From the NCBI GenBank assembly GCA_964418365.1, contig CAYQLM010000002.1:40555-97357 (forward strand): 56,803 nt of DNA, written 5' to 3'. The position numbers and the translations under genes were made by a program. Positions within the stretch are counted from its first letter, which is position 1; each line of letters starts with the position of its first letter. The notes under the pieces are model-generated. The model had not been told where the DNA came from. It saw only the letters and a list, made by a program, of their open reading frames with translations, and did not search any database. The DNA is from an uncultured Dehalococcoidia bacterium (GTDB lineage: Bacteria > Chloroflexota > Dehalococcoidia > DSTF01 > RBG-16-68-14). Positions 3,332 through 37,844 of the stretch are shown here, one piece after another.

Positions 3332-3340
3332 CGCTCCGCC

Positions 3341-10496: not shown

Positions 10497-10559
10497 CGCG
10501 CCGCAGCCCCGGCCACGGAACCAAGTTCCAGCACCAGACCTACTACGGGATGTTCCACA

Positions 10560-11795: not shown

Positions 11796-11862
11796 CGCGT
11801 AATCGTGGTCTGGTATTCTCGGCGCTGGCATGGCTGGCGAGGCCAGCGGGGCCGCGGCGGAG

Positions 11863-11871
11863 TGCTATAAT
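11863..11871 (+). promoter_or_regulatory. Extended -10 TGCTATAAT, leaderless-type
   Basis: Identical to 3323-3331. ATG at 11881. Confidence 0.5.
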
Positions 11872-11880
11872 CGCTCCGCC

Positions 11881-14800
11881 ATGAGCACCGAGGGAAGCGC
11901 TACGACGACGACCATCCTCTTCACCGACTTGGTGAACTCCACAGGGCTGCTGCAGCGCGCCGGCGACGAGCGCGCGCAGCGTATCGTACAAGGGCACCAC
12001 AAGCTGCTGCAGGACGCCGTGGCGGCCAACGCCGGGCGGGCCGTGAAGTGGGAAGGCGATGGCCTCATGGCCGCCTTCTTCTCTTCGGCCGACGCCGTGC
12101 GCTGCGCGATCGCCATCCAACAGGGCGGCCGCCGTCCGATCGCTGGTGAACGCCTAGAAGTGCGGGTCGGCCTAAACGTCGGTGAGGCGCTTCATTGGGA
12201 GCAGGACGACTACTTCGGGACGCCCGTGGTAATCGCAGAACGGTTGTGCAAGCGGGGACAGTCGGGTCAGATTCTCTGTAGCGCGCTCGTGGCCGGCCTC
12301 CTGGCGGGTCGCCAAGCGTTCCGCTTCCGCGAGCTGGGCGAGCTGGAGCTCAAGGGCATCGAGGAGCCGGTCGACGCCTGCGAGGTCCTGTATGAGGAGG
12401 ACCAGCCGAGAGCGTTCCTCACCCACACGCCGTTCGTCGGGCGGGCCGAGGAGGTCGCCAGGCTCCACCAGCGACTCGCAGAGGCGCGCGCTGGCCGGGG
12501 CGGGCTGGTCATGCTCGTCGGCGAGCCGGGCATCGGCAAGACGCGGACGGCGGAAGAGTTCTGCGAGGCAGCTCGACAAGACGGCGCCGCCGTCGCCTGG
12601 GGGCGCTGCTACGAAGGCGAGTGGGCGCCCCCCTACGGCCCGTTCGTTGAAGCGATCGAGGACCACGCGCACAGCGCCGGCCCCGACCAGTTGCGTGAGG
12701 ACTTAGGGTATGGCGCCGGGCCCATCGCCCGTCTCGTGCCAGCCATCAGGGAGCGCCTGCCGGACATCCCGGAGCCCGTCGCGATTCAGAGAGACGAGGA
12801 GCGCTTCCGCCAGCTCGACGCCGCCTCGCCGTATGGCATCGCGGCGCCGCTTCAAACGGACGAGGAGCGCTTCCGCCTGCTCGACGCCGTCTCTCAGTTC
12901 TTCATCGCGGCGTCCCAGCGCGCGCCCGTCGTGCTGGTGCTGGACGACCTGCACTGGGCGGACAAGGGAACGGTGGCCATGCTCCGGCACGTTGCCCGCT
13001 TCGCTCCACGCCAGCGCATCCTGCTCCTGGGCGCGTACCGGGACGTGGAGCTCGACCGCCAGCACCCACTCGCCGAAGCCCTGGTCGGGCTGCATCGCGA
13101 GACGAACTACGAGCGCATCCTGCTCAAGGGGCTCGACGTGGGAGAGGTGAGCGAGCTGCTGAACACCATCGCGGAGCAGGACATGCCCCACGGGCTCGTC
13201 GCTGCCATCAGCCGAGAGACCGACGGGAACCCGTTCTTCATCCGCGAAGTGCTGCTGCACCTGGTGGAGACCGGTGCGCTCTATCAGCGCGAGGGCCGCT
13301 GGAGAAGCGACGCCAGGATCGAGGAGCTGGGCATACCGGAGGGGGTGCGTCAGGTCGTCGGCCGGCGCCTCTCACATCTCTCCACGAACGCGAACCGCCT
13401 GCTCACTGCTGCGTCGGCGTTCAGCGGGGCGTTCCGCTTCGATGTCGCCGCGGGCGTCGCGGGCCTCGATGAGACGGCGGCGCTCGACGCGGTGGACGAG
13501 GCGCTGGCGGCGCAACTGCTACGGCCGGCGGGCGAGCCGGATGCGTGCGACTTCACCCACGCCCTCATCCGGCACACGCTGTACAGCGAGCTGAGCCCGC
13601 CCCGCCAGGTGCGACTTCACCGCCAGATTGCAGAGACGATGGAGCAGGTGTACAGCGACCCTTCCACGGGCTCAGGACGAAGCCAGCTCATACAGCACGC
13701 GGCGGAGCTCGCCTACCAGTACCACCGCAGCTTCACCCTCCCAGGCGCGGAACGCGGCGTCGGCCACGCCATCGCCGCGGCCGACCGCGCGGAGGCGGCC
13801 TTCGCCCACGACGAGACGGTGACGTTCTTGCGCATGGCACTGGAGCTGCTGCCGGAGGAGGACGCTCGGCGTCCGCGCCTCCTCGGCCGCCAAGCACTGG
13901 CCCTCGCCTGGGCGCTCGAGTTCGACGAGGCGTTGGCGGCGGCGCGGCAGGCGGGCGACTTGATCGCAGAGGTGGAGGGTGCGGACGCCGCGGCCGACTA
14001 CCTGGCCGAAGCGGTACGCACGATGCGGATGGCTGGATCCTTGCCCGGCGCCCGGGCGCTCGCCGGGCCGGGGCTGCGCTACGCCGGCGAGCGGCGCGAC
14101 GCCACCTGGGCGTGGCTGCAAGCGTATGATCTCGGGCGCCGCCGCATCGACGATCCCGACCAGACAGGAATGTTCGTTGCTGGGCCCGAGGACCACGAGC
14201 TGTGGCGGGTCCTTGAAGAGCTACCCCCTGACCAGCGTGCAGGCTTAACCGGCCGGCCGCCTTCGTCCAGAGGCGACGTCTTGGCCCGCTTCGCGGATGA
14301 TCCGTTCCAACTGACGTTCCACGCTGGCGAATACCGCCGCGGCCTCCCGCTCTGGCAAGAGCAAGCGAAGCGAACTGAACAACAAGGACGGATCGCCGGC
14401 GCCCTCGACGCCTGGGCCAACCTCGCCCGCTGCCACACCGCCCTGGGGGCCTTTGCGGCAGCACGGGAGGCGTACCGGCAGGGAAGGGCGCTCGCTGCGC
14501 GGTTGCCACAAGGGTCAGCTGTCCCGCTCCTGCTCGCGGCTCCGAGGAGCGAATGGCGGCTGGCCTCCGATGAGGGCTGGCAGGAGCTCCTGGCAGACAC
14601 CCGGGCCTTCCTGGAGCGGCCGCCCGCTGAAGTCCCAACTGCGCTTGGCAGCTTTCGCGCAGCCGCTGCCCTCGCGAACGCCAGGTTGGGCCCGACGGAG
14701 GAGGCGCTGCACTGGCTCGGCACCCTGATCGCCGGGCTTGAGCGGGCGTCGGGCTGGTCGGGCAACTACGTAGCCATCGCCTGTGACGCCGCAGCGACCC

Positions 14801-15168
14801 TCTGGCAACTGGAGCGAACAGACCATATCGAGGTCATCGAGCGCAACCTGCGGGAAAAGGTGGTCGCCCCTGACTTTCGCCACCCGATGCGGGACGGGCG
14901 GCTGGCGTTGGCCCAGCTCTGCGCGCTCCAGGAGCGCTTCGACGAGGCGGTCGAGTGGTTCCAGAAAGCGCGCGACGTGCTGGACGAGCAGGGCGCGCGC
15001 CCGCTACGCGCGATCGTCGACTTCGACGAGGCGCTGATGTACGTCCGCCGCGCCGCGCCCGGCGACACGGAGCGCGCCGCGCCGCTGCTCGATGCGGCGG
15101 TGCGCCAGTTCCGTGAGATCGGCATGACCGGCTGGGTGCGCCGGGCGGAAACGCTCTCGCCTCCGTAG
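11881..15168 (+). CDS. Class III adenylate/guanylate cyclase domain - AAA(P-loop, STAND-like) NTPase - TPR protein (intact copy 2)
   Basis: ILFTDLVNSTGL...WEGDGLMAAF...RVGLNVGEA...GTPVVIAERL (cyclase). LVMLVGEPGIGKTR Walker A and VVLVLDDLHWAD Walker B. Long helical/TPR C-terminus. Start taken at the ATG equivalent to copy 1. Confidence 0.85.
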   Translation: MSTEGSATTTTILFTDLVNSTGLLQRAGDERAQRIVQGHHKLLQDAVAANAGRAVKWEGDGLMAAFFSSADAVRCAIAIQQGGRRPIAGERLEVRVGLNVGEALHWEQDDYFGTPVVIAERLCKRGQSGQILCSALVAGLLAGRQAFRFRELGELELKGIEEPVDACEVLYEEDQPRAFLTHTPFVGRAEEVARLHQRLAEARAGRGGLVMLVGEPGIGKTRTAEEFCEAARQDGAAVAWGRCYEGEWAPPYGPFVEAIEDHAHSAGPDQLREDLGYGAGPIARLVPAIRERLPDIPEPVAIQRDEERFRQLDAASPYGIAAPLQTDEERFRLLDAVSQFFIAASQRAPVVLVLDDLHWADKGTVAMLRHVARFAPRQRILLLGAYRDVELDRQHPLAEALVGLHRETNYERILLKGLDVGEVSELLNTIAEQDMPHGLVAAISRETDGNPFFIREVLLHLVETGALYQREGRWRSDARIEELGIPEGVRQVVGRRLSHLSTNANRLLTAASAFSGAFRFDVAAGVAGLDETAALDAVDEALAAQLLRPAGEPDACDFTHALIRHTLYSELSPPRQVRLHRQIAETMEQVYSDPSTGSGRSQLIQHAAELAYQYHRSFTLPGAERGVGHAIAAADRAEAAFAHDETVTFLRMALELLPEEDARRPRLLGRQALALAWALEFDEALAAARQAGDLIAEVEGADAAADYLAEAVRTMRMAGSLPGARALAGPGLRYAGERRDATWAWLQAYDLGRRRIDDPDQTGMFVAGPEDHELWRVLEELPPDQRAGLTGRPPSSRGDVLARFADDPFQLTFHAGEYRRGLPLWQEQAKRTEQQGRIAGALDAWANLARCHTALGAFAAAREAYRQGRALAARLPQGSAVPLLLAAPRSEWRLASDEGWQELLADTRAFLERPPAEVPTALGSFRAAAALANARLGPTEEALHWLGTLIAGLERASGWSGNYVAIACDAAATLWQLERTDHIEVIERNLREKVVAPDFRHPMRDGRLALAQLCALQERFDEAVEWFQKARDVLDEQGARPLRAIVDFDEALMYVRRAAPGDTERAAPLLDAAVRQFREIGMTGWVRRAETLSPP

Positions 15169-15374: not shown

Positions 15375-17063
15375 ATGACGGCGATCTCGCGCGCGCTCGT
15401 GGCGGTCTCCGAGAGCGTCCGCGTCTGGCCGCGCTGGCTCACCGTCTCGATCGTCATCGGCGTGTTCGTCCTCATCTTCGGCCTGCCTACGATCGTCATC
15501 CCGCTCGCCACCGATCAGGTGCTCTTCGCGATCGGCGCGCGCACGGTCATCGAAGGCCAACAGCTCTATCGCGATTTCTGGGACATCAAGCCGCCGCTGA
15601 TCTACCTGCTCTACGCCGTGCCCCTCTCGATCGCCGGCGTGCACATGGAGGCGGTGCGCGTCTTCGATCTGCTGAACACCGCGCTCGCCATGGCGGCCAC
15701 GTATCTCCTCGCCCGACGCTTCTTCGGCGAACGCGCCGGACTGCTCGCCGCGGTCTTCTACGGCTTCACGTACCTCGCCTGGTCGCCGAACGACGCGCTC
15801 GGCGAGACCGAGAGCTTCATGGCCGCGCCGCTCGCGTTCGCCTTCTGGCTCTACCTCCCCGACGATGCCCGCCGCGACGCGCCGCTGCGCGCCGTCGCCG
15901 CCGGCCTGCTGATCGGCATTGCGTTCGCGCTGAAGACGCCGGCGGTGCTCTTCCTGCTCGGCCTGCCCATCGCGGAGCTCGCGCTTCGCCCGCGCGTGCA
16001 GTGGCGCCGCGAAGGCATCGCTGGGCGGCTCGCGCTCGCGGCGCTCGGCTTCCTCGCGGTGCAGGCCGCGCTCGCTGCCTATCTCGCGACCGCGGGAGCA
16101 CTGCACGACTTCATCGACATCCAGCGCCACTACACGCTGCACTACAACGCGTATCGATTCGCGCCCGGCGGCCACTCTCACGAGCGCTTCCTGCTCGACG
16201 CGACGGGCATCTGGCTCAAGGACGCCGCGTTCCTCACCGTTCCCGCCTTCGCGGGGCTGCTCGCTGCGTTCTTGCGCTCGCGACATGCGCGCGGCGTCGC
16301 GCTGCTCGGGCTGCTTGCGCTGCTCGGTGTCGTCAGCATCTGGTGGCAAGGGAAGATGTTCCAGTACCACTGGCTCGTCGTCATCCCGATGCTGGCCGCG
16401 CTCGCCGGCTTCGCGCTCGACGAAGCCATCGCCGTGTTCGCGCGTCTGCCAAGACAGCAGGCGTTTGGCGCGCTCGCGCTCCTTGCGATCGGTCTGCTCG
16501 CGCTCGCCGAACAGCCGCTCACCAACACGTACGACGAGTACCGGACCTTGATCCGCTACGCCGGCGGCTCGTTCACGCGGCGTCAGGTCGAGGCGAACTA
16601 CTATCCGCTGTACGTCAGCAACCACCAGGTCGTCGATTACCTGCGCGCGCACAGCGCCGCCGGCGACCGCGTCTACGTCTGGGGCTTCTGGCCGCAAGTC
16701 GACTTCTGGTTCGGCCACTCCTTCGATCGCTTCGTCTTCAACTCCGGCCTCCGCGCGACGTGGTCGCCGCAGTCCTGGCGCGCTGAGCTCGTCCGCGACC
16801 TGCGCGCGTCCGCCTCAGGCGGACCGCGCTATATCGCGATCGGCCAGGGCGATATGCAGCCGTGGCTCGTCGGCACGTCGCAGACCTCGCAGCAGGCGCT
16901 CGATAACTTCCCGCAGCTCGCCGCGATCCTCGCTGCGGACTACCGCCCCGTGCTCGATGCCGGCGTCATGGTCCTCTACGAACGCCAGCCGGCGGCGGTA
17001 TGGGCGTGGCCCTTGGCGACTACTCTCATGCCCACCCTCTGTCTCGTCCAGATACATGGGTGA
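15375..17063 (+). CDS. Polytopic membrane glycosyltransferase, GT-C fold (ArnT/PMT-like)
   Basis: 562 aa with many TM helices. YRDFWDIKPPLIYLLY motif typical of ArnT/PMT_2-type enzymes. Confidence 0.6.
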   Translation: MTAISRALVAVSESVRVWPRWLTVSIVIGVFVLIFGLPTIVIPLATDQVLFAIGARTVIEGQQLYRDFWDIKPPLIYLLYAVPLSIAGVHMEAVRVFDLLNTALAMAATYLLARRFFGERAGLLAAVFYGFTYLAWSPNDALGETESFMAAPLAFAFWLYLPDDARRDAPLRAVAAGLLIGIAFALKTPAVLFLLGLPIAELALRPRVQWRREGIAGRLALAALGFLAVQAALAAYLATAGALHDFIDIQRHYTLHYNAYRFAPGGHSHERFLLDATGIWLKDAAFLTVPAFAGLLAAFLRSRHARGVALLGLLALLGVVSIWWQGKMFQYHWLVVIPMLAALAGFALDEAIAVFARLPRQQAFGALALLAIGLLALAEQPLTNTYDEYRTLIRYAGGSFTRRQVEANYYPLYVSNHQVVDYLRAHSAAGDRVYVWGFWPQVDFWFGHSFDRFVFNSGLRATWSPQSWRAELVRDLRASASGGPRYIAIGQGDMQPWLVGTSQTSQQALDNFPQLAAILAADYRPVLDAGVMVLYERQPAAVWAWPLATTLMPTLCLVQIHG

Positions 17064-17466: not shown

Positions 17467-18558
17467 ATGACTGAGACACGTAAGCACAGTTGGCAATCGT
17501 TCAAGCTACGTTCCTGGCAGTTGGCGGCGCTGGGAGTGGCCGTCCTCATGGCGCTGATGGCGGGCATCGCGAGCGCTGACACGAACACCATCAACTTCGA
17601 GACGTACAGCCTCGGCACTGTTGACGGACAGGACGGTTGGGTCAGCACCGGGTCCGTTGGCGGTGGCTGTGCAATGTACGACGTAGAGGTCGACAGCAGC
17701 TTCGGCTATGGTACGTTTGGTACCAAGAGCCTGCGGATTTCCAATGCCGCAACGAGCGGCTGCTTTACCGACCAGACCTACTCCAAGTCCCTGGTAGACG
17801 AAGCCGGGGAGGCTGCAGCGGTAAACGGCGGCTTCTCGGGTGGGACCAGGCAGTCGCACTTCGAAGCTGCGTGGGACTTCGCCTCGACGGTGCCGGGAGC
17901 CGAGCAGCCGGGCCTGCAGGTCGTGGCCAGCCCGGACCGCGGCGACGGCGCGCGTATGAGCTATATCCGGATGACGGACAAGCCATCCGGTTTGGGAGTC
18001 GACTTCATTGACTACCAGTCGGGCGTCAATGTAGTGGGCTGTGGAGACAATTTCGTCGAGACCAACGCCGTGAGTGGCCTGGACAGGACCGTGCCCCACA
18101 CGATCAAGGTGACCATGGACTTCAAGCCCGGTCCGGGTCCGGCCTACGCGGACGACGTTAAGGTCTACGTTGACGGCGTGCTCAAGATCAACAAGCGCAC
18201 AAGTTGGGAGGACTACTTCCGTGAGTGCCAGGACGGCACGACGCGCACAGTCGACTCCCTCCTCTTCCGTGTCGCCGGCACGAACGCTCCCGCTACTGCG
18301 GGTAACGGCTTTGTGATCGACAACCTGACGCTAACGTCACGTGCGTCGCAGGCGGGCGACGCCAAGCCGACCAACACGCCCACGGCGACGCCCACGCCCC
18401 AGGGGCCCGTGGGCGGCATCTCCCTCGATCCGGGCGTGGGCGGCTCGTCCGGCAGCGACGCCTGGCTGCTCCTTACGGCGGGCCTCGCAGTCATCACCGC
18501 GAGCGCACTTGCCCTCGGTGGTGGTGCGTGGTACGTGCGGAGGCGGCGCGTGCAGTAG
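17467..18558 (+). CDS. Secreted beta-sandwich (LamG/lectin-like?) protein with PT linker and C-terminal VGGISLD-TM-RRRR signal
   Basis: ATG preceded by a G8 tract. Signal LAALGVAVLMALMAGIASA. Tail ..[63 protein letters not shown]. Confidence 0.75.
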   Translation: MTETRKHSWQSFKLRSWQLAALGVAVLMALMAGIASADTNTINFETYSLGTVDGQDGWVSTGSVGGGCAMYDVEVDSSFGYGTFGTKSLRISNAATSGCFTDQTYSKSLVDEAGEAAAVNGGFSGGTRQSHFEAAWDFASTVPGAEQPGLQVVASPDRGDGARMSYIRMTDKPSGLGVDFIDYQSGVNVVGCGDNFVETNAVSGLDRTVPHTIKVTMDFKPGPGPAYADDVKVYVDGVLKINKRTSWEDYFRECQDGTTRTVDSLLFRVAGTNAPATAGNGFVIDNLTLTSRASQAGDAKPTNTPTATPTPQGPVGGISLDPGVGGSSGSDAWLLLTAGLAVITASALALGGGAWYVRRRRVQ

Positions 18559-18597
18559 AGCCTCGCGTCCACGCGGACTAATCGAGATCTGACAACA

Positions 18598-18633
18598 GGG
18601 CTGCGCGCCTACAAGAGGGGGTAGGCGCAGCCC
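18598..18633 (+). terminator. GC-rich hairpin, possible terminator
   Basis: GGGCTGCGCGCCTAC-aagaggg-GTAGGCGCAGCCC. No strong T-run. Confidence 0.4.
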
Positions 18634-18696
18634 TCTGCCATCCGGATGGCTCAACGGAGGTTCTGGCGTTGGCGCACCCACACGCCAGCGCGAGTG

Positions 18697-18705
18697 TGCT
18701 ATACT
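18697..18705 (+). promoter_or_regulatory. Extended -10 TGCTATACT
   Basis: tgcTATACTagccgacgctGGTGGTCC. The -35 is weak. Confidence 0.45.
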
Positions 18706-18774
18706 AGCCGACGCTGGTGGTCCGCCGCCCATCGCCTACGCCCCGCTAGTTCCGTCAGGGGAGGACGACACCTC

Positions 18775-19404
18775 ATGCGATTGTTCGTTCGCGCCGCCGT
18801 GTTGTTGCTCGCGCTTGGAGTGCTCACCATCCTCTCGCCCGGCGCCTCGCGCGCTTCGACCACGACCGTACCCATGGGCGCGAACACTATCTACGGCCCG
18901 TTCTGGTACTGCGACTCCGCCCACAGCGGCGTCGTCTGCACGACGACGATCACCGTTGGCGATTCCGTGACCTGGCAGAACAACACCATCGCCGCCCACA
19001 CTGTCACCGAGTGCGACGGCTACTGCGGCCCGCCGTACCCGCCGCTTCCCATCTGGGACTCCGGCCTCATCTCGGCCAGCGGGTCGTACACGCGGCAGTT
19101 CAACGTGGTCGGTACGTTCAACTACCAGTGCGATGTGCATCCCACCGAAATGAAGGGCCAGATCGTCGTGCTCGCTGTCGGCCCGACGGCGACGCCGTCG
19201 CCCACGTCGCACACACCGCTGCCGCCCACGCCGACGTTCACGCCGGGGCCGGTCGGTGGAGTGTCGATCGATCCGGCGCTGCCGGCTGGCGGCAACGCGA
19301 GCTTGCACCTTGTGATCGAGCTGCTCGCCGGCGCGACCGCCTTCGCAATGACCATCGCGGGCGCCGCCTGGGCGCGCCGGCGCTGGCCCAGCCGGTCGAC
19401 GTAA
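18775..19404 (+). CDS. Secreted cupredoxin (type-1 copper, plastocyanin/amicyanin-like) with PT linker and VGGVSID-TM-RRR signal
   Basis: GGAGG RBS. Signal MRLFVRAAVLLLALGVLTILSPGASRA. Ligand pattern H...C-x2-H-x4-M (AAHTV...YQCDVHPTEMKG). Tail ..TPGPVGGVSIDPALPAGG...AGAAWARRRW. Confidence 0.8.
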   Translation: MRLFVRAAVLLLALGVLTILSPGASRASTTTVPMGANTIYGPFWYCDSAHSGVVCTTTITVGDSVTWQNNTIAAHTVTECDGYCGPPYPPLPIWDSGLISASGSYTRQFNVVGTFNYQCDVHPTEMKGQIVVLAVGPTATPSPTSHTPLPPTPTFTPGPVGGVSIDPALPAGGNASLHLVIELLAGATAFAMTIAGAAWARRRWPSRST

Positions 19405-19405
19405 G

Positions 19406-20224
19406 ATGATCCGCAAGGCAGCGCTGCCGGCCCTCGCCGTCGTCGGGCTGACAGCCGCCGCGCTCGCCATCGTCCTCTTCGTCACCCGCGGCTCATCGAC
19501 CGAGCCGCTCGCGTCGCACACGGCGGCCATCGTCGACCAGCTCGGCTTCACCGCGCCCGCCCCGGCGTTCGTCGCGGAGGCGACGCGGGCGCTGGAGCAG
19601 GCCGGCTACACGGTCGACTACTTCCCGAGCGAGCAGGTCACGGTCGACTTCTATCGCGAGCTGCCCGCGCGCGGCTACGGCCTGGTCATCGTGCGCGCGC
19701 ACTCAGGCTTCGCGGCGAAAGATGCGTCAACACTGGCAGCCGAACTCGCGAGCCGGGAGGGCGATACGTTCCTCTTCTCTTCGGAGCCCTACAGCGAGGA
19801 CAAGTACACGCAGGAGCAGATCGACCAGCGGCTCGGCGTGGCGGCCTATCTTGACCCCACCGGCGTTCCGGGCGACCCCGAGGCGCTCCTGGCGGCGTTC
19901 AACAGTGCGCCGAGGTACTTTGGCATCAAGCCCAGCTTCATCCAGTCCTCCACGCACGGCCGGTTCGAACGCGCCACCGTCATCCTCATGGGGTGCTACG
20001 GGCTCTCCTCCAATGCCTTGGCGAAGGCGTTCGTAAAGAAGGGGGCGCAGGCCGTCGTCGGCTGGGACGACCTGGTCTCAGCGGGTCACACGGACACCAC
20101 GACCGAACGCCTGCTCACACACCTCCTCGCCGACAACCTCCCCGTCGATGCCGCCGTCGCGCAGACCGCGGCGGAGTCCGGCCCCGACCCGACGTATGGC
20201 GGCAAGCTCACGCTATACCGCTGA
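19406..20224 (+). CDS. N-terminally membrane-anchored protein with conserved-looking His/Cys motifs (VIVRAHSG, STHG, VILMGCYG); candidate Cys hydrolase
   Basis: ATG 1 nt after the cupredoxin TAA. TM helix LPALAVVGLTAAALAIVLFV. Alternating beta/alpha-like pattern. Family not recognised with certainty. Confidence 0.6.
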   Translation: MIRKAALPALAVVGLTAAALAIVLFVTRGSSTEPLASHTAAIVDQLGFTAPAPAFVAEATRALEQAGYTVDYFPSEQVTVDFYRELPARGYGLVIVRAHSGFAAKDASTLAAELASREGDTFLFSSEPYSEDKYTQEQIDQRLGVAAYLDPTGVPGDPEALLAAFNSAPRYFGIKPSFIQSSTHGRFERATVILMGCYGLSSNALAKAFVKKGAQAVVGWDDLVSAGHTDTTTERLLTHLLADNLPVDAAVAQTAAESGPDPTYGGKLTLYR

Positions 20225-20311
20225 TCTCGTTGCTTCCACGCCGACGCAAGCGTAGGGGAGCCTTTCAGGGCTCCCGCTGCCACCCGGGCTAGGCCAGACC
20301 TCCGATCGCCA

Positions 20312-20349
20312 TCACCCCTCTCCATTTGGGAGAGGGGACGGGGTGAGGG
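20312..20349. repeat. REP-like hairpin TCACCCCTCTCC-N-GGAGAGGGG..GGGGTGAGGG
   Basis: Same family at 21038-21079, 53362-53388 and 54003-54075. Confidence 0.7.
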
Positions 20350-20415
20350 CATTCCGGCCCCGACCCCACCTACGGCGGCAAGCTGCCTGTGTACCGCTGA
20401 AGGGCTGTCGTGCGC

Positions 20416-20913
20416 TCATGGAGGGAACAGGCTCGCAAGCAAGGCGGCCGCGAGCTCGTTCGAAGGCCGGTCCGTGGTATCCACGCTGAAGTCGAAGTCT
20501 ACGCCTTCGTAGATCCATCGCATCTGCTGCTCAGCCCAACCCCGCAGCCTATCGCTCCGCGCGGCCTCGCGTTCGCGCAGACGCTCCAGCGAGCAGCGCA
20601 CAGCGATCACCTTCGTGCCCGGAACGCCCCGCAAGATCGACAGACAGCGATCGCGCAGGTCGTGTTCGTCGGGCAGCGAGCCGTCGACGATGATGTCGAT
20701 CCCGCCGCGACCGAACGCGGCGATCGCCGCGTGCATCGCGACGACGACTCGCGACCGGAACTCGGGGTCTTGCAAGGCGGGATGGTCTGGCCGTAGCGTC
20801 GGCGCAAAGCGATCGGCCTCGAGGTGCAGAAGCGGCCGCGGAGAGATCGCCTGCAGCGCCGCCGCGAAACTCGTCTTCCCGGACGAGGACGTGCCGCTTA
20901 GCACGATGAGCAT
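20416..20913 (-). CDS. Chloramphenicol phosphotransferase-like (CPT family) P-loop kinase
   Basis: MLIVLSGTSSSGKTS Walker A, ..IIVDGSL.., ..VIAVRCSLERLREREAARSDR.., ..YEGVDFDFSVDTT.. All collinear with Streptomyces CPT as I recall it. Confidence 0.7.
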   Translation of the reverse strand: MLIVLSGTSSSGKTSFAAALQAISPRPLLHLEADRFAPTLRPDHPALQDPEFRSRVVVAMHAAIAAFGRGGIDIIVDGSLPDEHDLRDRCLSILRGVPGTKVIAVRCSLERLREREAARSDRLRGWAEQQMRWIYEGVDFDFSVDTTDRPSNELAAALLASLFPP

Positions 20914-21037
20914 CGCGCTAGCACGATACTGGCTTCGCCCCGCGCCCGCTATCGACTTCGCGGTGGCTCATCCCAGCGACGGCGGCGCGCTCAGCCCTCA
21001 CCGCGACCCTTCGCCAAGCTCAGGGCAGGCTCTGCGA

Positions 21038-21079
21038 TCACCCCTCTCCCGCTCGCGGGAGAGGGGCTGGGGGTGAGGG
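21038..21079. repeat. REP-like hairpin (same family as 20312)
   Basis: tcacccctctcccgctcgcgggagaggggctgggggtgaggg. Confidence 0.7.
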
Positions 21080-21083
21080 CTGA

Positions 21084-21111
21084 TTGACATCGCGCCTACG
21101 TGGCGTACACT
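21084..21111 (+). promoter_or_regulatory. Sigma70-type promoter TTGACA-16-TACACT
   Basis: TTGACAtcgcgcctacgtggcgTACACTgacggcatcgattGGTGGCG. Confidence 0.6.
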
Positions 21112-21160
21112 GACGGCATCGATTGGTGGCGTCCCCGCAGCCGCCACGGCGAGGCTCTCG

Positions 21161-22608
21161 TTGGCAAAGCAGCTTTCTGTGCTCATTCTCATCGCGCTGC
21201 TCGCGGCTGGCGTTGCAGAGGTGGAGCCGGCTCGTGCGAACAGCATGGCAGCCGTGTCCGCCGGCGGCGGCCATACGTGCGCCTTGACTACGGCTGGCGG
21301 CGTAATGTGCTGGGGCTTCAACGCCTACGGTCAATTAGGGAACGGCACAAGCGCCGGACCACAAATTTGTGTCAGCGGGCCCTATTCCTATCCCTGCAGC
21401 ACAGTTCCGGTGAATGTCACGGGCTTGAGTGGCGGAGTGACTTCGGTGTCTGCAGGCTCTCAATCGTGCGCCGTTACTTCCGCGGGCGGGGTGAAGTGCT
21501 GGGGTGGGAATTCGAATACTCCAATGGACGTTACCGGGATCGGCGGTGCAGTCGCTATATCGGCTGGTGGGAACCACATCTGTGTTTTGACTAATGCCGG
21601 TGGAGTGAAGTGCTGGGGTTACAACGCGGACGGGGAAGCTGGAAACGGCACGATTACGAATACGGGTTGCTTATGTGTCCTAGCCCCTGGATGTATTGGG
21701 GTTGACCAGTGGCGTTGTGGCCATCTCAGCAGGAGGCGCCCACACATGCGCCGTCACCACGAGCGGAAGCGTCAAATGCTGGGGTTCGAATATCTTTGGA
21801 CAGTTGGGAACCGGCACGTCGACGATAGGTGGGTGCAGCTGCATTCCTACGCCCGTCGATGTTGTTGGTCTGGCGAGCGGTATAGCGGATGTTTCCGCGG
21901 GACCGGCCCACTCGTGTGTGCTTACGAATACACAAGGCGTAAAGTGCTGGGGTTGGAACGCGTATGGCAATTTGGGTGACGGAAGTTTCAACGGTCGCTT
22001 GGCGCCGGTAGATGTGGTTGGGCGTAGCCGCAGTCTCAGCGGGCGGAGAGGTATCGGGAGTCCTACCGTCGCACACCTGCGCCGTAACGACTGGTGGTCA
22101 GGTGAAGTGTTGGGGCGATGGTGCGGAAGGGCAGCTTGGAAACGGCGCGGCCTCGTCGAGCAACGTGCCGGTGGACGTGCAAGGCTTGACCAGCGGCGTC
22201 AGATCAGTGTCAGCTGGAGGACACCACAGTTGCGCCGTGACTACGGACGACATGACGAAGTGCTGGGGTGCTAATCTCTATGGTCAGTTGGGAGATGCGA
22301 CGAGCAGCGGCCCCGAGATCTGCGGCTCAGGCTTTCCCCCTTGCAGCACAATTCCTGTGGATGTACTCGTGGTTGCTAAGATCACGCCGACACCAACCGC
22401 CACCCCGATCGCGCCGACGGCGACGCCCACTGGTACGCCTCAACCGCCCGTCGGCGGCATCTCTATCGATGGCGCCGCCCTCTCGCCCGACCGCACCGGC
22501 TCCCATCGATCTGCCGCCTTCCCGTTCGCCGCGCTCGCGCTCCTGGGTGTAAGCAGCGCTGTCGGCGCGATCTGGTTCGCGAGAAGACGACTACTTCGCT
22601 CTCGTTGA
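21161..22608 (+). pseudogene. RCC1-repeat secreted protein with PT linker and VGGISID-TM-RRR signal; two +1 frameshifts
   Basis: Three overlapping ORFs (21161.., 21696.., 22012..) in three frames all carry ..SAGGxHTCAxT..G.VKCWG.N..GQLG.. repeats. The shifts map to a C4 run (21684-21687) and a G3 run (22020-22022). Confidence 0.7.
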
Positions 22609-24125: not shown

Positions 24126-26378
24126 TTAGCAGTTCTGGTTGTACTGCTTCACCGCGGCCAGGATGTCCGCCACTGTCTGCTGGCCATCGGCCGGGCCCAG
24201 GTTCCACACGTTGCCACCGATGATCGCGGTGCGGTCGGTGTCAATCGAGTAGAGGGCGTGGCCCTGGCCCTTGCCGTACTTGCCGACGACGGCCAGGATG
24301 TCGGCCACGGTCTGCCCGTGCGGCGTGTTCACCTTCTCTGGGTTGAAGTAGTCCCAGCGGTTACTCGGGTCGCGGAGACCGCCACCCGAAGGACCACCAG
24401 GGGTGTCACCCAACTCGCGCTTGTCCGGGCAGCCGTCGCCGTCGCTGTCACGGCAGCCGGTGTAGCCGAGGCCAACGTTCGCAACGCAACCGCCGGCCTT
24501 GTCGCCCGGTGCCTGCCGTACCAACGCCAGCTTGACGTGGATCGGCGGGCCCTTCCCTGTCGCGTCCGGGTTCGTGCAGTTGGCGAGGCCCTGGACGACC
24601 CAGATGTTCGCCTTGCCGATGCCCGTGTGAAGGTCGATCTTGGCCAGGACCTTCACGTTGCCCAACTGGCCGAGACCATCCCCGGCCGGCGGACTGTCCT
24701 GGAAGCAACCAAACAGGCTGAAGGTATTCGCGGTGTTGTCGATAGTGCCTGTCAACACAGTATGTGCGCTGTCGACGTCCGCGAATTGGTACTGCGAGAC
24801 ATCACAGGGGAGTGTCGGACAGCCCGTTCCCTGGTTAGCGAGCGTCGCACAGCTGGCGGCTGCAAGGGCACAGCCCGGCGGGGCCGCGCCAGGTAGGCCG
24901 TCACCGCAGAACTTGGCCGCAGCCGGCCCGCAGCTGTTGACGCCGGTCATCGGGTTCCCGGACGCGGCCTGCGGGTTCACCGTGATCGTCGCGGAGTCGA
25001 TGTAGCACAGGATACGTGCGGTTAGGTTCTTCCCACTCTGCTGGATGTCTGCCTTGCAGTCGTAGTAGAGGCCGGGCGCGCCGACGTCGGCCCGTACTGC
25101 CTCAGCGGTGATGTCGTAGCTCCCGCTCACGTCCACCGGGCTGCCCCCGGTCGGGTCGTACGGGTTCCAGGGGTCGTCGCCGCACTTGGCGGTCGAGCCC
25201 ACCTTGTCGGCGAACAGCTCGTCCATGTCGGTGCAGCCGTCGCCGTCGAAGTCACGCGTCGTCAAGATCCGCGTGAGCGAGATCGGGAACAGTACTCCGC
25301 CTGGACCCGGAGCGATTCCGTTCTGCGCTTCGGTGCACATGGCGTTCGTCGCGCCGAAGAACAGCGCCGCTGTGCCGAAGGAGACGCTGCCTACCGGCCC
25401 GTCTTGAGCCTTCGCGTTCGCAACTGTGGTCACAGTCACCACGTTCGGGCCTAGCGATCCGCCGATGTCGGCGAAGCAGCCCACCGTAATGAGCGTGTCA
25501 GGTGCAACCGGTGACCAAGGTGTGGGGAATTTGGGATCAGTACAGGCCGGTCCCCCCGCCGGACAGTACAATCCGTTCAGTTTGGTCGGCTGCAGCGGGC
25601 TGTACGGCGGCGGGTCGACGTGGCCGTTGCAGCTGCCCTCATTTGCGACAACCGGCGTGGCGCCACCACCCGTGCTGTGCACTGCGGCGCAAGGCGGCTC
25701 GCCTGCGCCTACCCCCGCGGCGAACTCGGTGTAGCACTGCGCCGCGCTCTTTATCGTGAGCTTCGCCGCGTCCTCATCGGTGCGGACGATGCAATGGTAG
25801 AGCCCCGGGCCGGCGTCCACGTCGAAGAGGCCGGTGAGATTACCGCCGGGACACGGCTTAGGTGCCCATAGGGTCATCGTGTCGGAAGCCGGTGGATACT
25901 CGCTGGTATCTACTCCGGGGCATGGAGGTACCGCATCGAGTTCCACGGTTCCATCAGATACAGACGGCGTCGGTGGCGGCGGCGGTATCACTCCGCAATT
26001 GGTTGGTGTCGGTATGGGCGTAGGCACGGTAACACCGAAGCGCGGCGGGTTCGGCTGTGTGCCTCCCACCACTTTCCACCACTGCCCCTTCCACCACAAA
26101 TTGTCTCCGATGAAAATCTTCTGGTCTGGTAGCTTGTTGACCCAAACGATCGCATATACCTTGTTCGGGCCGATGGAACAGTTGATAAACGCCTTTACCG
26201 TGGCCACCACTTTGAGGGGCGGCGCATCCATCGGATTCGGCGTCTTTGTGGGCACGATCGCTTGCGCCTTCGGCGCCGACGAACTCCCCAGGAGCATGAA
26301 GACAATGAGCACTACGCCCAGCAGCCCGGCCAATGCGCCGAGCCCCAGCAGGCGTGCTCTTGGACTCACGCCTTGCAT
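24126..26378 (-). CDS. Secreted Cys-rich 750-aa protein with internal and C-terminal DGDGC..EL..DP.N.(W/F)D modules and dockerin-like tail (paralog A)
   Basis: GGAGGT RBS before the ATG at 26378. Signal/TM LLGLGALAGLLGVVLIVFMLLG. C-terminus CRDSDGDGCPDKRELGD...DPSNRWDYFNPEKV...TVADILAVVGKYG...NVWNLGPADGQQTVADILAAVKQYNQNC. Confidence 0.8.
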   Translation of the reverse strand: MQGVSPRARLLGLGALAGLLGVVLIVFMLLGSSSAPKAQAIVPTKTPNPMDAPPLKVVATVKAFINCSIGPNKVYAIVWVNKLPDQKIFIGDNLWWKGQWWKVVGGTQPNPPRFGVTVPTPIPTPTNCGVIPPPPPTPSVSDGTVELDAVPPCPGVDTSEYPPASDTMTLWAPKPCPGGNLTGLFDVDAGPGLYHCIVRTDEDAAKLTIKSAAQCYTEFAAGVGAGEPPCAAVHSTGGGATPVVANEGSCNGHVDPPPYSPLQPTKLNGLYCPAGGPACTDPKFPTPWSPVAPDTLITVGCFADIGGSLGPNVVTVTTVANAKAQDGPVGSVSFGTAALFFGATNAMCTEAQNGIAPGPGGVLFPISLTRILTTRDFDGDGCTDMDELFADKVGSTAKCGDDPWNPYDPTGGSPVDVSGSYDITAEAVRADVGAPGLYYDCKADIQQSGKNLTARILCYIDSATITVNPQAASGNPMTGVNSCGPAAAKFCGDGLPGAAPPGCALAAASCATLANQGTGCPTLPCDVSQYQFADVDSAHTVLTGTIDNTANTFSLFGCFQDSPPAGDGLGQLGNVKVLAKIDLHTGIGKANIWVVQGLANCTNPDATGKGPPIHVKLALVRQAPGDKAGGCVANVGLGYTGCRDSDGDGCPDKRELGDTPGGPSGGGLRDPSNRWDYFNPEKVNTPHGQTVADILAVVGKYGKGQGHALYSIDTDRTAIIGGNVWNLGPADGQQTVADILAAVKQYNQNC

Positions 26379-26764
26379 ACAGTTACCTCCTCTGTCATCC
26401 CTGATTGAGTCTTGAGTACGGTTGGTCTGATTTCTAGAGACTAGCCTGCCCCCTCCTTTCGCGAGCGATGCGCGCGCGTGAACGCCTGTATCGATTCCCA
26501 CGCTTCTCGCCCGCGTGCCAGGTGGCACAGCGTACAGAGGAGGTACTTGCATGCCATGGGACTCGATACAGGCGTCCCGCAAGGACGCATCGGCAGCGTG
26601 ATCGCGCCCGGGGCGCAATCAGCCGTACCAGGGGATGTCCGTGATCCTCGGGTGCTTCGTTGAACCGCCACGACGTGGCCGTTGCTGGGCCACCTTGCCA
26701 CAGCATTCCTGCCCCCGCCCCTCGGAATGCACAGCCGATTGGGAATCGTATCCCACCGGGTTCT

Positions 26765-26883: not shown

Positions 26884-29499
26884 TTAGCAGTTGTGGTTGT
26901 ACTGCTTGACCGCGGCCAGGATGTCCGCCACCGACTGCTGGCCATCGGGCGGACCCAGGTTCCACACGTTGCCACCGATAAGCGCGGTGCGGTCGGTGTC
27001 GATCTGGTAGGCAGCGTTGCCCTGGTTCTTGCCGTACTGGCCCACGACCTTGAGGATGTCCGCCACGGTCTGGGCGTGCGGCGTGTTGACCTTCTCCGGG
27101 TTGAAGAAGTCAAACGGGTTCATCGGGTCGCGCAGGCCGCCACCCGTGGGGCCACCCTGGGTGTCACCCAGCTCCCGCTTGTCCGGGCAGCCGTCGCCGT
27201 CGCCGTCACGGCAGCCGGTGTAGCCCAGGCCAACGTTAGCCACGCAGCCACCGGTCTTGTTGCCGGGCGCCTGCCGGACCGCCGCGACTTGAACGATGCC
27301 GCCGACGCCTGTCGGCGTGCCGGCTACGCAGTTGGCGCGCGTCTCGGCCACGTAGATATTGGCCTTGCCGATGCCGGTGTGAGCGTCGAACTTGGCCACG
27401 ACGTAGACGTTGCCCAACTGACCCAAGCCGTCGCCTTCGGGCGGGTCGGCGCTGAAGCAGCCGGCCAGGTTAATGTTGTTACTGATGTTGTCCAACGTTC
27501 CGGTCAGCACCGTGTGCTTGTTGTCGACGTCCGCAAACTGGTACTGCGAAACGTCACAGGGGAGGGACGGACAGCCCGCTCCCTGACCTGCGAGAGTGGC
27601 GCAGGGCGGCGCGGTTTGGGCACAGCCCGGCGGCGCAGCTGCCGGTAAGCCGTCGCCGCAGAACTTGGCCGCAGCCGGCCCGCAGCTGTTGACGCCCGTC
27701 ATTGAGTTGCCCGACGCCGCCTGCGGGTTCACCGTGATCCCTGCGGAATCGATGTAGCACAGGAGGCGAGCGGTCAGGTTCTTGCCGCTCTGCTGGATGT
27801 CAGTAATGCAGTTGTAGTAGAAGCCGGGCGCGCCCACATCGGCGCGAATGGCCTCAGCTGTGATGTCCCAGGTTCCGCTCACCTCCGAGCTGCCCTCAAC
27901 CGCGTACGGGTTGAAGGGGTCCTGTGGACACTTGGTCGCTGAGCCCGGCTTGTTCTGCCAGAGCTTGTCCATGTCTGTGCAGGTGCCCACACCAGTGTAG
28001 ACTCGCGTCGTGGCTCGCCGGGTCAGCGTCGATACCAGCGCGAGCGTCCCGTTGCCCGCCAACGTAACATCCCAGGTCCCGGCCTGGGCGTTCGTGCACT
28101 GGGAGTTGGTCGCAGCGATGTAGACCGTTGCGTTGTTCGTGTTCGAGTTGCCAATCGTCGGGTTGGTTGCCACGGCGTTTGTCGAGGTGGTCTTGACCAC
28201 CACGTTGGGGCCGAGGGTCGTGCCGAAGTCCGCCAGACAGCCGATCTGCCAGGTGCCGTCCGTCGGAACGCTCGAACCGTCCGGTGCCGTACATGGGCCA
28301 GACTGACAGTAGAAGCCGTTGAGCTTGTACGGCGCGAGCGAGGTGTAAGGCGGCCCCGCGGAATAGCCCGCGCGGGCACCGCAGTCTCCTTCACCGGGCA
28401 CGGTGTTCGTGACAGGGTTGGCCCCCTGCGGGCCGGGGCCGTGCCAGAGCCCGCACGGCGGCATCCCCGCCCCTATGGCGAGGGAAGCCGTAGACCCGCA
28501 CGCGAGCGATGACTTCATCGCCTGCTGCCCGCCTGATATAGTCGAGTCCTCATCCGTCCGCACCATACACGCGTACGCCGTCGTCGCGGGCGACGGGTTA
28601 TACGTGCAAGGGCCCGCTGGCGCGGAAGTCCCCGCACAGGCGTCGAACAGCCCGCTTAGGACGCCCGCGCCGTCGGGCTTAGACGTGTCTTTCTTGCCGC
28701 CCGGCTGCTGTACCACGAGCTTATTGAAGAACTGATCGAAAGGTCCGGGGGTTCCGTTTATGTAGGGGAAGGGCGCAAAATCCTTAGGCCAAGCGACGTT
28801 CGGAATCTGCCAGACCTTATTGGTGAAGCCCGAAACCCGGGCGGCGCCCAGCCCCATCCGCAGCTTGTTGAGGAAGGCCTGTCCTCTAGCGTCGAAGCCC
28901 GTATAGCATTCGATGAACTTAAGGTGTTCAATCTTCCCCTTCGCGCCGTTGATGAAGATTTTCTGTTTGTCGCGCTGGGTTTCGCTTTCATTCCCTATGA
29001 CATCGTTGCCAATTTGGGCTTGGCCGGGAAAACCATGGCCCACGATAAAGATGTTCAGTTTTCTGCGAGGGTTATTCGCGTTGTACGCATTATTGATTTC
29101 ATCGACCGCTCCTTGCACGGTCGTTATTTTCTTTATACGATCATCGATGTTCGGCTGCTTACGCAATATGCGCTCGGCACCAACAAGATACCCGTCGGTA
29201 TTGTCATCCTTGATGAGCGTGATATCGACTCTCTTCTCGACAGGCTGCAGGTTGGAAATGATCATGAAGTCGGCCTTCGCCGTCGGTGGGTTATTTTTCG
29301 CGGGCACTGGAACATCGACGAACGGCGGGAACCCCTTATTTCCTGCGCCTGGGCAGCCAGCTTCGGGCACGTCGCCGGGAGTTTGCGCACTGGTAGTTCC
29401 CGGGTGGAAGGCGAGAACTGTGGCAAAGGCCAGCGCCGCGATGATCCCGCCCCCCAGGACGAGATCGAGCAGACCTGCTCTTGAACTCACGCGTCGCAT
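26884..29499 (-). CDS. Secreted Cys-rich 871-aa protein (paralog B) with an extra AT-richer N-terminal domain (DUF4347-like?)
   Basis: GGAGGT RBS. Signal LLDLVLGGGIIAALAFATVLA. C-terminal ~600 aa collinear with paralog A. N-domain ..KLNIFIVGHGFPGQAQIGND... Confidence 0.8.
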   Translation of the reverse strand: MRRVSSRAGLLDLVLGGGIIAALAFATVLAFHPGTTSAQTPGDVPEAGCPGAGNKGFPPFVDVPVPAKNNPPTAKADFMIISNLQPVEKRVDITLIKDDNTDGYLVGAERILRKQPNIDDRIKKITTVQGAVDEINNAYNANNPRRKLNIFIVGHGFPGQAQIGNDVIGNESETQRDKQKIFINGAKGKIEHLKFIECYTGFDARGQAFLNKLRMGLGAARVSGFTNKVWQIPNVAWPKDFAPFPYINGTPGPFDQFFNKLVVQQPGGKKDTSKPDGAGVLSGLFDACAGTSAPAGPCTYNPSPATTAYACMVRTDEDSTISGGQQAMKSSLACGSTASLAIGAGMPPCGLWHGPGPQGANPVTNTVPGEGDCGARAGYSAGPPYTSLAPYKLNGFYCQSGPCTAPDGSSVPTDGTWQIGCLADFGTTLGPNVVVKTTSTNAVATNPTIGNSNTNNATVYIAATNSQCTNAQAGTWDVTLAGNGTLALVSTLTRRATTRVYTGVGTCTDMDKLWQNKPGSATKCPQDPFNPYAVEGSSEVSGTWDITAEAIRADVGAPGFYYNCITDIQQSGKNLTARLLCYIDSAGITVNPQAASGNSMTGVNSCGPAAAKFCGDGLPAAAPPGCAQTAPPCATLAGQGAGCPSLPCDVSQYQFADVDNKHTVLTGTLDNISNNINLAGCFSADPPEGDGLGQLGNVYVVAKFDAHTGIGKANIYVAETRANCVAGTPTGVGGIVQVAAVRQAPGNKTGGCVANVGLGYTGCRDGDGDGCPDKRELGDTQGGPTGGGLRDPMNPFDFFNPEKVNTPHAQTVADILKVVGQYGKNQGNAAYQIDTDRTALIGGNVWNLGPPDGQQSVADILAAVKQYNHNC

Positions 29500-29790
29500 G
29501 TGAATACCTCCTCTGTGCGTTTGGTCATGAATTCAACTAGGGTTGCGCGTGATTGGAGCCTTGCCTTTCCTTACCCTTCAGGGTGGCGGTGCCAGACCTG
29601 GCGCCCAGATGCCGTGTTGCGGGGAGCACGGGTAGAGCGAGCAGGTACGCTTCGCCTGCGGGGAGCCGATGGGTTCATCGGGTAAGATGCGTCCGCCAAG
29701 GCAAGTATCAGCCACGCCGTTGCTTTTCCTAGCCGGTTGCGGGGAGCCCACCAGTGGTGCCCGAAGCGGGCACGTTTAGCAGACCAAGTA

Positions 29791-37818: not shown

Positions 37819-37844
37819 GTTCATTTTGCGAGACTCGGCAAGAC

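Follow-up and report, generated by a model that had tools for sequence, protein, structure and literature searches.

A 56,803-nucleotide stretch of DNA from an uncultured Dehalococcoidia bacterium (contig CAYQLM010000002.1; referred to below as the window) carries, at positions 17467-22608, three neighbouring genes for secreted proteins whose C-termini share a V-G-G motif, a hydrophobic helix and an Arg cluster. Among them lies a gene for a membrane-tethered protein with a predicted caspase-like fold. Judged by its sequence distribution, the VGG tail marks unrelated surface proteins in Chloroflexota and Bathyarchaeia. We consider it probable that this tail (VGG-CTERM) is a widespread tripartite sorting signal and that the caspase-fold peptidase is its processing enzyme; a new pair of sorting signal and peptidase is the most likely explanation. 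The first-pass annotation of the window had described three neighbouring secreted proteins with a common tripartite tail. Its coordinates, motifs, helices and W..RRR endings were all confirmed, with spacers of 10, 12 and 14 residues. Its proposal of a dedicated C-terminal sorting signal is supported by the occurrence of the tail in 2,403 protein clusters, by the unrelated passengers, and by co-localisation of tail genes with one enzyme family.

The window has a GC content of ~66%. The products of three open reading frames (ORFs) on the plus strand (17467-18558, 18775-19404 and 22012-22608) have the same C-terminal layout: PVGG[IV]S[IL]D, a spacer of 10-14 residues, a hydrophobic helix of 22-26 residues, and W..RRR. 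A Pro/Thr-rich linker precedes the motif in each tail, and all three cargo genes have signal-peptide-like N-termini. A six-frame scan of the 56.8 kb window with the pattern P.GG[IVL]S[ILV]D gave only these three matches. Cargo 1 (17467..18558, +) is a secreted protein of 363 amino acids (aa) with signal peptide MTETRK...GIASA|D, a passenger region, the linker and the tail; the tail hidden Markov model (HMM) scored 55 bits on its C-terminus. Tail 1 (18406..18558, +) reads ...TPTPQG-PVGGISLD-PGVGGSSGSD-AWLLLTAGLAVITASALALGGGAWYV-RRRRVQ, with the motif at 18406-18429, the spacer at 18430-18459, the helix (ending AWYV) at 18460-18537, and the basic end plus stop codon at 18538-18558. Cargo 2 (18775..19404, +) is a cupredoxin of 209 aa with signal peptide MRLFVRAAVLLL..., followed after its Pro/Thr linker by tail 2 (19249..19404, +), which reads ...TFTPG-PVGGVSID-PALPAGGNASLH-LVIELLAGATAFAMTIAGAAWA-RRRWPSRST plus stop; the motif occupies 19249-19272 and is separated by the 12-residue spacer from the helix at 19309-19374 (ending AAWA). 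Orthologues of cargo 2 in two related loci, L001 and L002/L006, have the same kind of tail. Cargo 3 (21161..22608, +) is a gene for an RCC1-repeat propeller that is split over three frames; it encodes a signal peptide at one end and a VGG tail at the other. Tail 3 (22447..22608, +), in ORF 22012-22608, reads ...GTPQP-PVGGISID-GAALSPDRTGSHRS-AAFPFAALALLGVSSAVGAIWFA-RRRLLRSR plus stop, with the motif at 22447-22470, a 14-residue spacer, and the helix (ending IWFA) at 22513-22581. The coding stretches of the three tails differ at synonymous positions, indicating that their similarity is held at the protein level. Recent DNA duplication or gene conversion of the tails was thereby ruled out.

The passengers differ among the three proteins. 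The earlier assignments of a cupredoxin and an RCC1 propeller were borne out by Pfam matches (PF00127 for cargo 2, 22.4 bits against a cut-off of 21.2; RCC1 for cargo 3). The "lectin-like beta-sandwich" attributed to cargo 1 remained unverified, its passenger having no family match in Pfam or NCBIfam.

The first-pass annotation had suggested searching public databases with an HMM of the tail. A profile of the three window tails alone gave nothing at E<=0.01 against a word-indexed database of 5.8 billion proteins, because this profile is too short and too local. A 37-tail profile and a 22-sequence profile, the latter run against a representative library, both worked. When the 22-sequence profile was searched with HMMER against 1.84 billion cluster representatives, it matched 2,403 protein clusters at E<=1e-3 and 541 at E<=1e-10, extending the signal far beyond the three proteins. 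The matching proteins are 65-1175 aa long, and the tail nearly always ends at their last residues. The 150 best matches included 131 new proteins, of which 129 carry [VIL]GG. Pfam passengers found in 99 cargoes belong to 60 different families, and the cargo domains (TSP3, beta-helix/NosD, FG-GAP, PD40, cohesin, RCC1, NHL, trypsin, PKD, M6 peptidase, "choice-of-anchor") are those of surface or secreted proteins. By a crude test, 64 of 104 full-length cargoes have an N-terminal hydrophobic segment.

The dominant form of the tail begins with P-VGG-[ILV]-A-E-L-P, and its consensus is P-VGG-[IV]-A-E-L-P ... SSG ... transmembrane (TM) helix ... GGWYARRRWLR; the motif is usually P-V-G-G-[IV]-x-[ED]-[LP]-P. 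The bacterial consensus starts with a Pro-rich lead-in, V-G-G (conserved in 46, 49 and 50 of 50 sequences), [IV], [AS], E or another residue, L or D, and P. It continues with ~10 variable residues, a [DE]-S/G-S-G patch, ~27 uncharged residues and GGWYARRRWLR. The window form PVGG[IV]S[IL]DP is a minority variant shared with the close relatives L001, L003, L035 and L065. The distance from motif to helix has a median of 17 residues, and the spacer is acidic or Ser/Gly-rich. Archaeal tails (PVGG[IV]WxPVDKFxLLAPYIGL...YVKRxKRRK) have a shorter spacer and keep V-G-G, which alone is universal across tails. An example of a VGG tail peptide is TPQGPVGGISLDPGVGGSSGSD. One metagenomic protein of 106 aa, P0121, has an N-terminal TM helix ending AAWYARRR and, at its C-terminus, a complete VGGIAELP...WYARRRGRG tail; it may be a fragment, a fusion, or a mis-called gene spanning two cargo ends.

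The helix with its W..RRR ending is also common to LPxTG-like tails of related genomes and to some homologues of the enzyme described below. It appears to be a lineage-wide ending of at least two different signals, of which only the VGG motif is diagnostic. This bears on the truncated Pro/Thr-repeat protein at 1-519 (+), whose end, ...VLPRSGYGG...TM...CWRWRLSK, contains an LPXTG-like LPxSG motif and not VGG. The first-pass annotation correctly gave this protein a different motif; the helix and W-basic ending that it also noted there are not specific to the VGG signal. LP[x][TSA]G tails (LPPTG, LPDTG, LPSSG, LPDAG and LPKTG) were found in loci L002, L021, L039, L050, L057 and L074, which suggests a second, sortase-type system in the same lineages.

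The tail was compared with named signals using Pfam (2025) and NCBIfam release 20 (June 2026) at their curated cut-offs. It has each element of the generic tripartite signal in the sense of Haft: a motif, a TM-length segment, a basic cluster, a position at the extreme C-terminus, and occurrence on many unrelated exported proteins. The resemblance to LPXTG, PEP-CTERM, PGF-CTERM and GlyGly-CTERM sorting signals pointed out earlier is sound as regards layout. No sorting-domain model in either library reached its cut-off on the window tails or on 10 further tails of relatives, archaeal ones included. A scan of 99 full canonical-tail cargoes gave no sorting-domain model except six sub-threshold matches to GVDTG_CTERM (NF058571; best E 0.0016). 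The closest named model, GVDTG_CTERM, reached no more than 19.5 bits, its cut-off being 29: it scored 16.7-18.9 bits on tail 1, 7.0 on tail 3 and 19.5 on the tail of the 1-519 protein, with no match on tail 2. On two tails, its match covered the helix and Arg part alone and skipped the motif. LPXTG models also remained below cut-off on the three tails (TIGR01167, 11.7-12.3 bits vs 15.9; PF00746, 9.4-13.5 vs 20), and these tails contain no LPXTG pentapeptide. PEP-CTERM, IPTL-CTERM, GPS-CTERM, GlyGly-CTERM (MprA_tail), NPXTG and LAVTG models were all sub-threshold on the window tails and relatives, and none was among the families matched by the 99 canonical cargoes. Where matched ranges were reported for PEP-CTERM, IPTL, GPS and GlyGly/MprA, they comprised the helix and Arg part only. 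Full-text literature searches on VGG-CTERM, PVGGI, GVDTG and Chloroflexi sorting signals found nothing relevant, and the 2023 survey of tripartite signals by Haft mentions neither Chloroflexi nor a VGG motif. These findings agree with the earlier suggestion that the motif might be undescribed. We regard the VGG tail as a previously unnamed signal, with the caveat that absence from Pfam, NCBIfam and the searchable literature is no proof of its being undescribed.

The candidate sorting peptidase, a gene product that the first-pass annotation had overlooked, is encoded at 19406..20224 (+; 272 aa), between the cupredoxin and RCC1 genes; a single nucleotide separates its ATG from the stop codon of the cupredoxin gene. 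After an N-terminal TM helix (19424-19486, +) comes an extracytoplasmic alpha/beta domain of caspase-like (clan CD) fold (ectodomain, residues 35-272); the catalytic domain is placed outside because a basic N-terminus precedes the helix. More than 300 homologues were found in Chloroflexota/Dehalococcoidia metagenome-assembled genomes (MAGs), all annotated as "hypothetical" and without Pfam domains. An alignment of 30 sequences showed that a basic N-terminus and a single TM helix precede a domain in which D44, R97, H99, E127, G196-C197, W220, H228 and D230 are invariant. The proposed catalytic His99 (codon 19700..19702, +; VIVRAH-SG) is conserved in 199 of 199 homologues covering the position, and the proposed catalytic Cys197 (codon 19994..19996, +; VILMG-C-YG) in 195 of 195. 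The invariance of both residues spans ~195 full-length homologues, archaeal ones included.

In the AlphaFold2 model (predicted local distance difference test score 86.9; predicted TM-score 0.81), His99 and Cys197 each directly follow a strand (93-97 and 191-195, respectively). The protein thus has the caspase-like alpha/beta fold and the order of His then Cys, each after a hydrophobic beta strand, that characterize clan CD. Foldseek searches against PDB retrieved DdvA CHAT (E 2.4e-5), SAVED-CHAT, Csx29 TPR-CHAT, gingipain R and separase; these clan CD matches had probabilities of 0.99-1.0 and query-normalised TM-scores of 0.40-0.49. Flavodoxin-like matches were interspersed among them, with similar E-values and lower query-normalised TM-scores. 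The only peptidase families recurring as weak Pfam matches were CHAT (10 of 30 homologues) and Peptidase_C25 (3 of 30). Both were below threshold: the window protein scored 13.5 bits vs 24 for CHAT (PF12770), and over the 30 homologues the best E-values were 0.0019 for CHAT and 0.071 for Peptidase_C25 (PF01364). The enzyme profile gave no meaningful match against PDB sequences, so the clan CD assignment rests on the fold, the motif pattern and the sub-threshold Pfam matches. Because the CHAT and C25 scores are below the gathering thresholds, we read the family, from the model, as a new clan-level relative that belongs to neither: a membrane-tethered, extracytoplasmic clan CD-like family. Some homologues (P0006, P0008; L003 1503-2609) have an extra C-terminal TM helix that ends like the cargo tails (AVWYVRRRFRV), without a VGG motif; this would give them a membrane anchor at either end.

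When a single genome of each species was scanned, 76 enzyme loci were located, in Dehalococcoidia, other Chloroflexota, Bathyarchaeia and one Promethearchaeota MAG; locus L045 has archaeal-type neighbours. Tail ORFs were called with tail HMMs in 78 enzyme-centred loci (1.13 Mb), which cover enzyme identities of 35-73% and two domains of life. Of the 65 tail ORFs found, 45 lie within 500 bp of the enzyme gene, against 6.4% expected (binomial p~1e-38, a value that overstates significance since loci of related MAGs are not independent); 61 are co-oriented with the enzyme gene and 50 are upstream of it. A tail ORF was present within 1 kb in 30 of the 52 loci having at least 1.5 kb on both sides. 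The passengers of 46 enzyme-adjacent cargoes fell into 37 unrelated BLAST clusters, indicating that the tail, not a protein family, travels with the enzyme. In the syntenic contig L001, whose enzyme is 69% identical, four tail genes (unknown protein, cupredoxin, beta-helix protein and RCC1) surround the enzyme gene and have tails of the form [PAS]VGG[IV]S[IF]DP...WYTRRRRV. In L002/L006, a MAG at greater distance, the enzyme gene occurs twice in tandem with cargo on either side, bearing SVGGLAGAPEV... and PVGGIAAAPEL... tails. The pairing of enzyme and tail was observed in Chloroflexota and in Bathyarchaeia/Promethearchaeota.

A second set of 80 metagenome loci was gathered with eight canonical tails, a sample biased to the PVGG[IL]AELP/WYARRR form. 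The enzyme was present in nine of them, always immediately adjacent and co-oriented. Clustering of neighbours in both locus sets identified the clan CD family as the only recurrent non-cargo neighbour, and no recurrent membrane protein, sortase, rhomboid, exosortase, CPBP protein or glycosyltransferase was seen near cargo or enzyme. Apparent extra neighbour clusters were discarded as opposite-strand shadow ORFs of high-GC genes or as dockerin-type cargo. The first-pass annotation had named taxonomic co-distribution with an enzyme as a test of the signal; what both sets show, at the level of gene neighbourhood, is strong co-localisation with one enzyme family. Other tail genes are dispersed: one lies 1.1 Mb from an enzyme copy on chromosome OY970386.1, and some have no enzyme within 10 kb. 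Other complete MAG chromosomes encoding the enzyme are OY969584.1, CP070630.1 and CP070759.1. The picture, by analogy with sortases, is of a many-to-one system with partial clustering.

In several enzyme loci that have no VGG-tail neighbour (L045, L061, L064, L074 and L078), the enzyme gene adjoins genes for very large proteins with C-termini that are dockerin-like by eye. Cohesin domains (PF00963) were present in 3 of 99 VGG cargoes. The lineages may thus build cohesin-dockerin assemblies on their surface, anchored through VGG tails.

We propose the following mechanism. Cargo would be exported by Sec via its N-terminal signal peptide and would stay attached to the membrane through its C-terminal helix, the Arg cluster facing inwards, as the topology suggests. 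The 19406-20224 peptidase, itself tethered by its N-terminal helix with the caspase-fold domain outside, would recognise the VGG motif where an extended linker exposes it beyond the membrane, a role to which gene linkage points. With ~17 residues between motif and helix, the motif would be within reach of a soluble catalytic domain on a tether but too far out for an intramembrane protease. A His99/Cys197 dyad would then cleave at or near VGG, removing the anchor. By analogy with PorU and GPI (glycosylphosphatidylinositol) transamidase, the resulting acyl-enzyme (thioester) might, more speculatively, hand the cargo on to an acceptor at the surface; hydrolysis by water, with simple release, is an equally open alternative. 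One enzyme would serve several cargoes, some encoded next to it and most dispersed. A stronger version of this proposal is that a clan CD transpeptidase transfers VGG-cut cargo to a lipid, glycan or S-layer acceptor, forming a fifth mechanistic class of prokaryotic sorting system, a functional counterpart of GPI transamidase and PorU that is shared, probably by horizontal transfer, between Dehalococcoidia-like Chloroflexota and Bathyarchaeia/Promethearchaeota. We put it forward tentatively, as possible but more doubtful than the pairing of signal and peptidase.

Several observations weigh against the peptidase as processing enzyme. Fold similarity to clan CD is moderate (TM about 0.43-0.49), no solved structure matches by sequence, and the Pfam matches are below threshold. 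His99 and Cys197 are 98 residues apart, a spacing much longer than is usual in clan CD, and the invariant His228/Asp230 pair could provide the true partner of Cys197 in place of His99. The universal part of the tail, V-G-G, carries little information for a recognition site. About 40% of the well-flanked enzyme loci have no adjacent VGG cargo, and the enzyme is not near most cargo genes, an arrangement that fits a many-to-one system but in which adjacency falls short of proving co-occurrence. The mutual dependence of related loci, noted above, reduces the weight of the linkage statistic.

Three other explanations were considered. The enzyme may cleave the tail purely to shed cargo into the medium, so that the system serves secretion and release, not anchoring. 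All evidence for the processing pair applies equally here, neighbour clustering showed no conserved acceptor or lipid- or glycan-transfer gene beside the pair, and many cargoes are enzymes or binding proteins able to act when free. However, cohesin, TSP3, FG-GAP, PKD, beta-helix and "choice-of-anchor" cargo is typical of cell-attached proteins, PorU and GPI8, the clan CD enzymes known to take off C-terminal signals, are transpeptidases, and a protein without any tail would already be released by Sec export alone. We consider pure release rather unlikely. It is somewhat less likely still that the tail is an uncleaved, permanent type I membrane anchor in which VGG and the linker form a stalk or hinge, a glycosylation site or a packing element, while the caspase-fold neighbour acts in passenger maturation or surface-protein turnover or has a non-catalytic role. 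The generic nature of the helix and W..RRR ending in these lineages, where it is found also on LPxTG-like tails and some enzyme homologues, is consistent with such an anchor, as is the PMT_2 glycosyltransferase gene just upstream in the window and in L001, since the linker may be a glycosylated stalk. However, a stalk would hardly call for a V-G-G that stays invariant on thousands of unrelated cargoes, bacterial and archaeal alike; cargoes adjacent to the enzyme have nothing but the tail in common, which ties the enzyme to the tail and not to the passenger; and the invariance of His and Cys in every homologue argues for catalysis.

We think it improbable, and the least probable of the three, that VGG is a real signal read by another enzyme encoded elsewhere, with the clan CD protein a mere frequent neighbour. 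Candidates would be a sortase acting at a degenerate LPXTG-like site ("LP.SSG"), an exosortase/archaeosortase, a rhombosortase or a CPBP-type protease. LPxTG-like tails (LPPTG, LPDTG, LPSSG and LPRSG) with the same helix and Arg ending do occur in the same loci and at window 1-519, "LPGSSG" or "LPASSG" precedes the helix in some VGG tails, LPXTG_anchor and GVDTG_CTERM give sub-threshold matches, and the clan CD gene is not beside most cargo genes. Against this, nothing resembling a sortase, rhomboid, exosortase or CPBP protein turns up repeatedly around cargo or enzyme genes, the clan CD family being the sole non-cargo neighbour to do so; LP.SSG is missing from most bacterial and all archaeal tails, whereas VGG is invariant; and ~17 residues from motif to helix is far for intramembrane or interface proteases. 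On balance, we favour the processing of VGG tails by the caspase-fold peptidase.

The RCC1 gene of cargo 3 is interrupted by two frameshifts at short homopolymers, at ~21684 (CCCC) and ~22021 (GGG). Its orthologue in L001 is intact (457 aa), and tblastn with this orthologue runs through the three window frames. Because the independent contig L162 (99.93% identical, five single-nucleotide polymorphisms, no gaps) carries both breaks in its copy at 4756-6203, the gene is probably a pseudogene in the population, and sequencing error is an unlikely source of the frameshifts.

Directly upstream of the cargo cluster, a polytopic membrane protein is encoded at 15375-17063 (+), and its L001 orthologue matches PMT_2 (PF13231), a glycosyltransferase family. 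The product could O-glycosylate the Pro/Thr linkers of the adjoining cargo. The gene was ruled out as a general component of the system, being syntenic only with L001, the closest relative. Other proteins of the window have flexitail-type C-termini: 24126-26618 (-) matches NF041520 with 92.6 bits, and 26884-29532 (-), 37815-39548 (+) and 35660-36667 (+) were assigned by eye. The 37815-39548 product is a second RCC1-repeat protein. Its flexitail-like end, together with the LPxSG tail at 1-519, indicates that passenger and anchor are modular. A region at 36001-38000 falls to a GC content of 0.54 vs ~0.66 elsewhere and may be recently acquired DNA; it covers ORF 36664-37818, whose product has a hydrophobic segment at its N-terminus, and the beginning of the second RCC1 gene. 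A DnaK-like gene (46694-48578, +) appears to be split into overlapping ORFs 46694-47647 and 47559-48578, which points to misassembly or to a frameshift in what is normally an essential gene. Repeated large regulator-like genes (3296-5525, 10479-11705 and 11803-15168, +) have near-identical N- and C-terminal stretches (...GARPLRAIVD[YF]DEALMYVRRAAPGD...FREIGMTGWVRRAE...), and at least one copy is seemingly split over two frames. Rfam gave no RNA family in the window.

Dehalococcoidia-like Chloroflexota and Bathyarchaeia are abundant, mostly uncultured organisms of sediment and subsurface. A signal present on at least 2,400 clusters provides a handle on their surface proteome, including adhesins, cohesin/dockerin-type assemblies, proteases and cupredoxins, and a means of better annotation, both the tail cargo and the enzyme being "hypothetical" at present. 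Should processing by the clan CD protein be borne out, this protein would represent a new enzyme class among the few sortase-like systems and a prokaryotic parallel to GPI transamidase and PorU, with possible use as a peptide ligase having a short G-G-containing recognition site. The hypothesis is directly testable with the soluble ectodomain and synthetic peptides.

PGF-CTERM/archaeosortase A, PEP-CTERM/exosortase, GlyGly-CTERM/rhombosortase and MYXO-CTERM/myxosortase are systems in which one dedicated peptidase serves many unrelated secreted proteins that bear a short tripartite signal (10.1101/2023.06.07.544157; PMC3237569). The VGG tail is a signal of the same kind, although none of the HMMs for these signals reached its cut-off. 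In those systems, however, the proteases are polytopic intramembrane or interface enzymes and the motif abuts the helix, whereas ~17 residues separate VGG from its helix and the candidate is a clan CD protein with one membrane pass and a soluble domain. GVDTG_CTERM, the best-scoring named model on tail 1 and on the 1-519 tail, differs in staying below its cut-off throughout. LPXTG signals have the same succession of short motif, hydrophobic helix and Arg/Lys cluster as the VGG tail. Sortases A-F, like the candidate, are cysteine peptidases with an N-terminal TM tether, an extracellular catalytic domain and His before Cys in the sequence, and their cargo genes are likewise partly adjacent and partly dispersed. 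The VGG system differs in lacking LPXTG, in its longer spacer between motif and helix, in its presence in archaea, and in the caspase-like alpha/beta fold of the candidate in place of the sortase beta-barrel. Sortases, exo/archaeosortases, rhombosortases and CPBP/myxosortases are the enzyme classes known to act on such signals, and the candidate falls outside all of them.

Within clan CD, PorU and GPI transamidase are the two known enzymes that remove C-terminal signals, and both favour small residues at the processing site. PorU (Peptidase C25; type IX secretion system, T9SS) is a cysteine peptidase that removes a C-terminal sorting signal from many unrelated cargoes, as the candidate would, and the weak Peptidase_C25 matches and the presence of gingipain R among the fold matches point in the same direction. 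Unlike the VGG tail with its TM helix and Arg cluster, the T9SS signal is a folded beta-sandwich C-terminal domain of ~80 residues in diderm Bacteroidota; PorU is outer-membrane-associated and multidomain, and no T9SS genes were seen here. GPI signals share with the VGG tail a hydrophilic spacer and a C-terminal hydrophobic segment and have small residues at the processing site (cf. V-G-G), and PIGK-Gpi8 (Peptidase C13) is, like the candidate, a single-pass, membrane-tethered clan CD cysteine enzyme on the extracytoplasmic/lumenal side, where it acts as a transamidase. GPI signals, however, have no basic cytoplasmic cluster, and PIGK has its membrane helix at the C-terminus and works as one of five subunits; the 50 best Foldseek matches included neither legumain nor PIGK, and no GPI-biosynthesis context was seen. 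By analogy, the VGG system appears most like the sortases in topology and many-to-one pairing and, among clan CD enzymes, most like PorU and GPI8.

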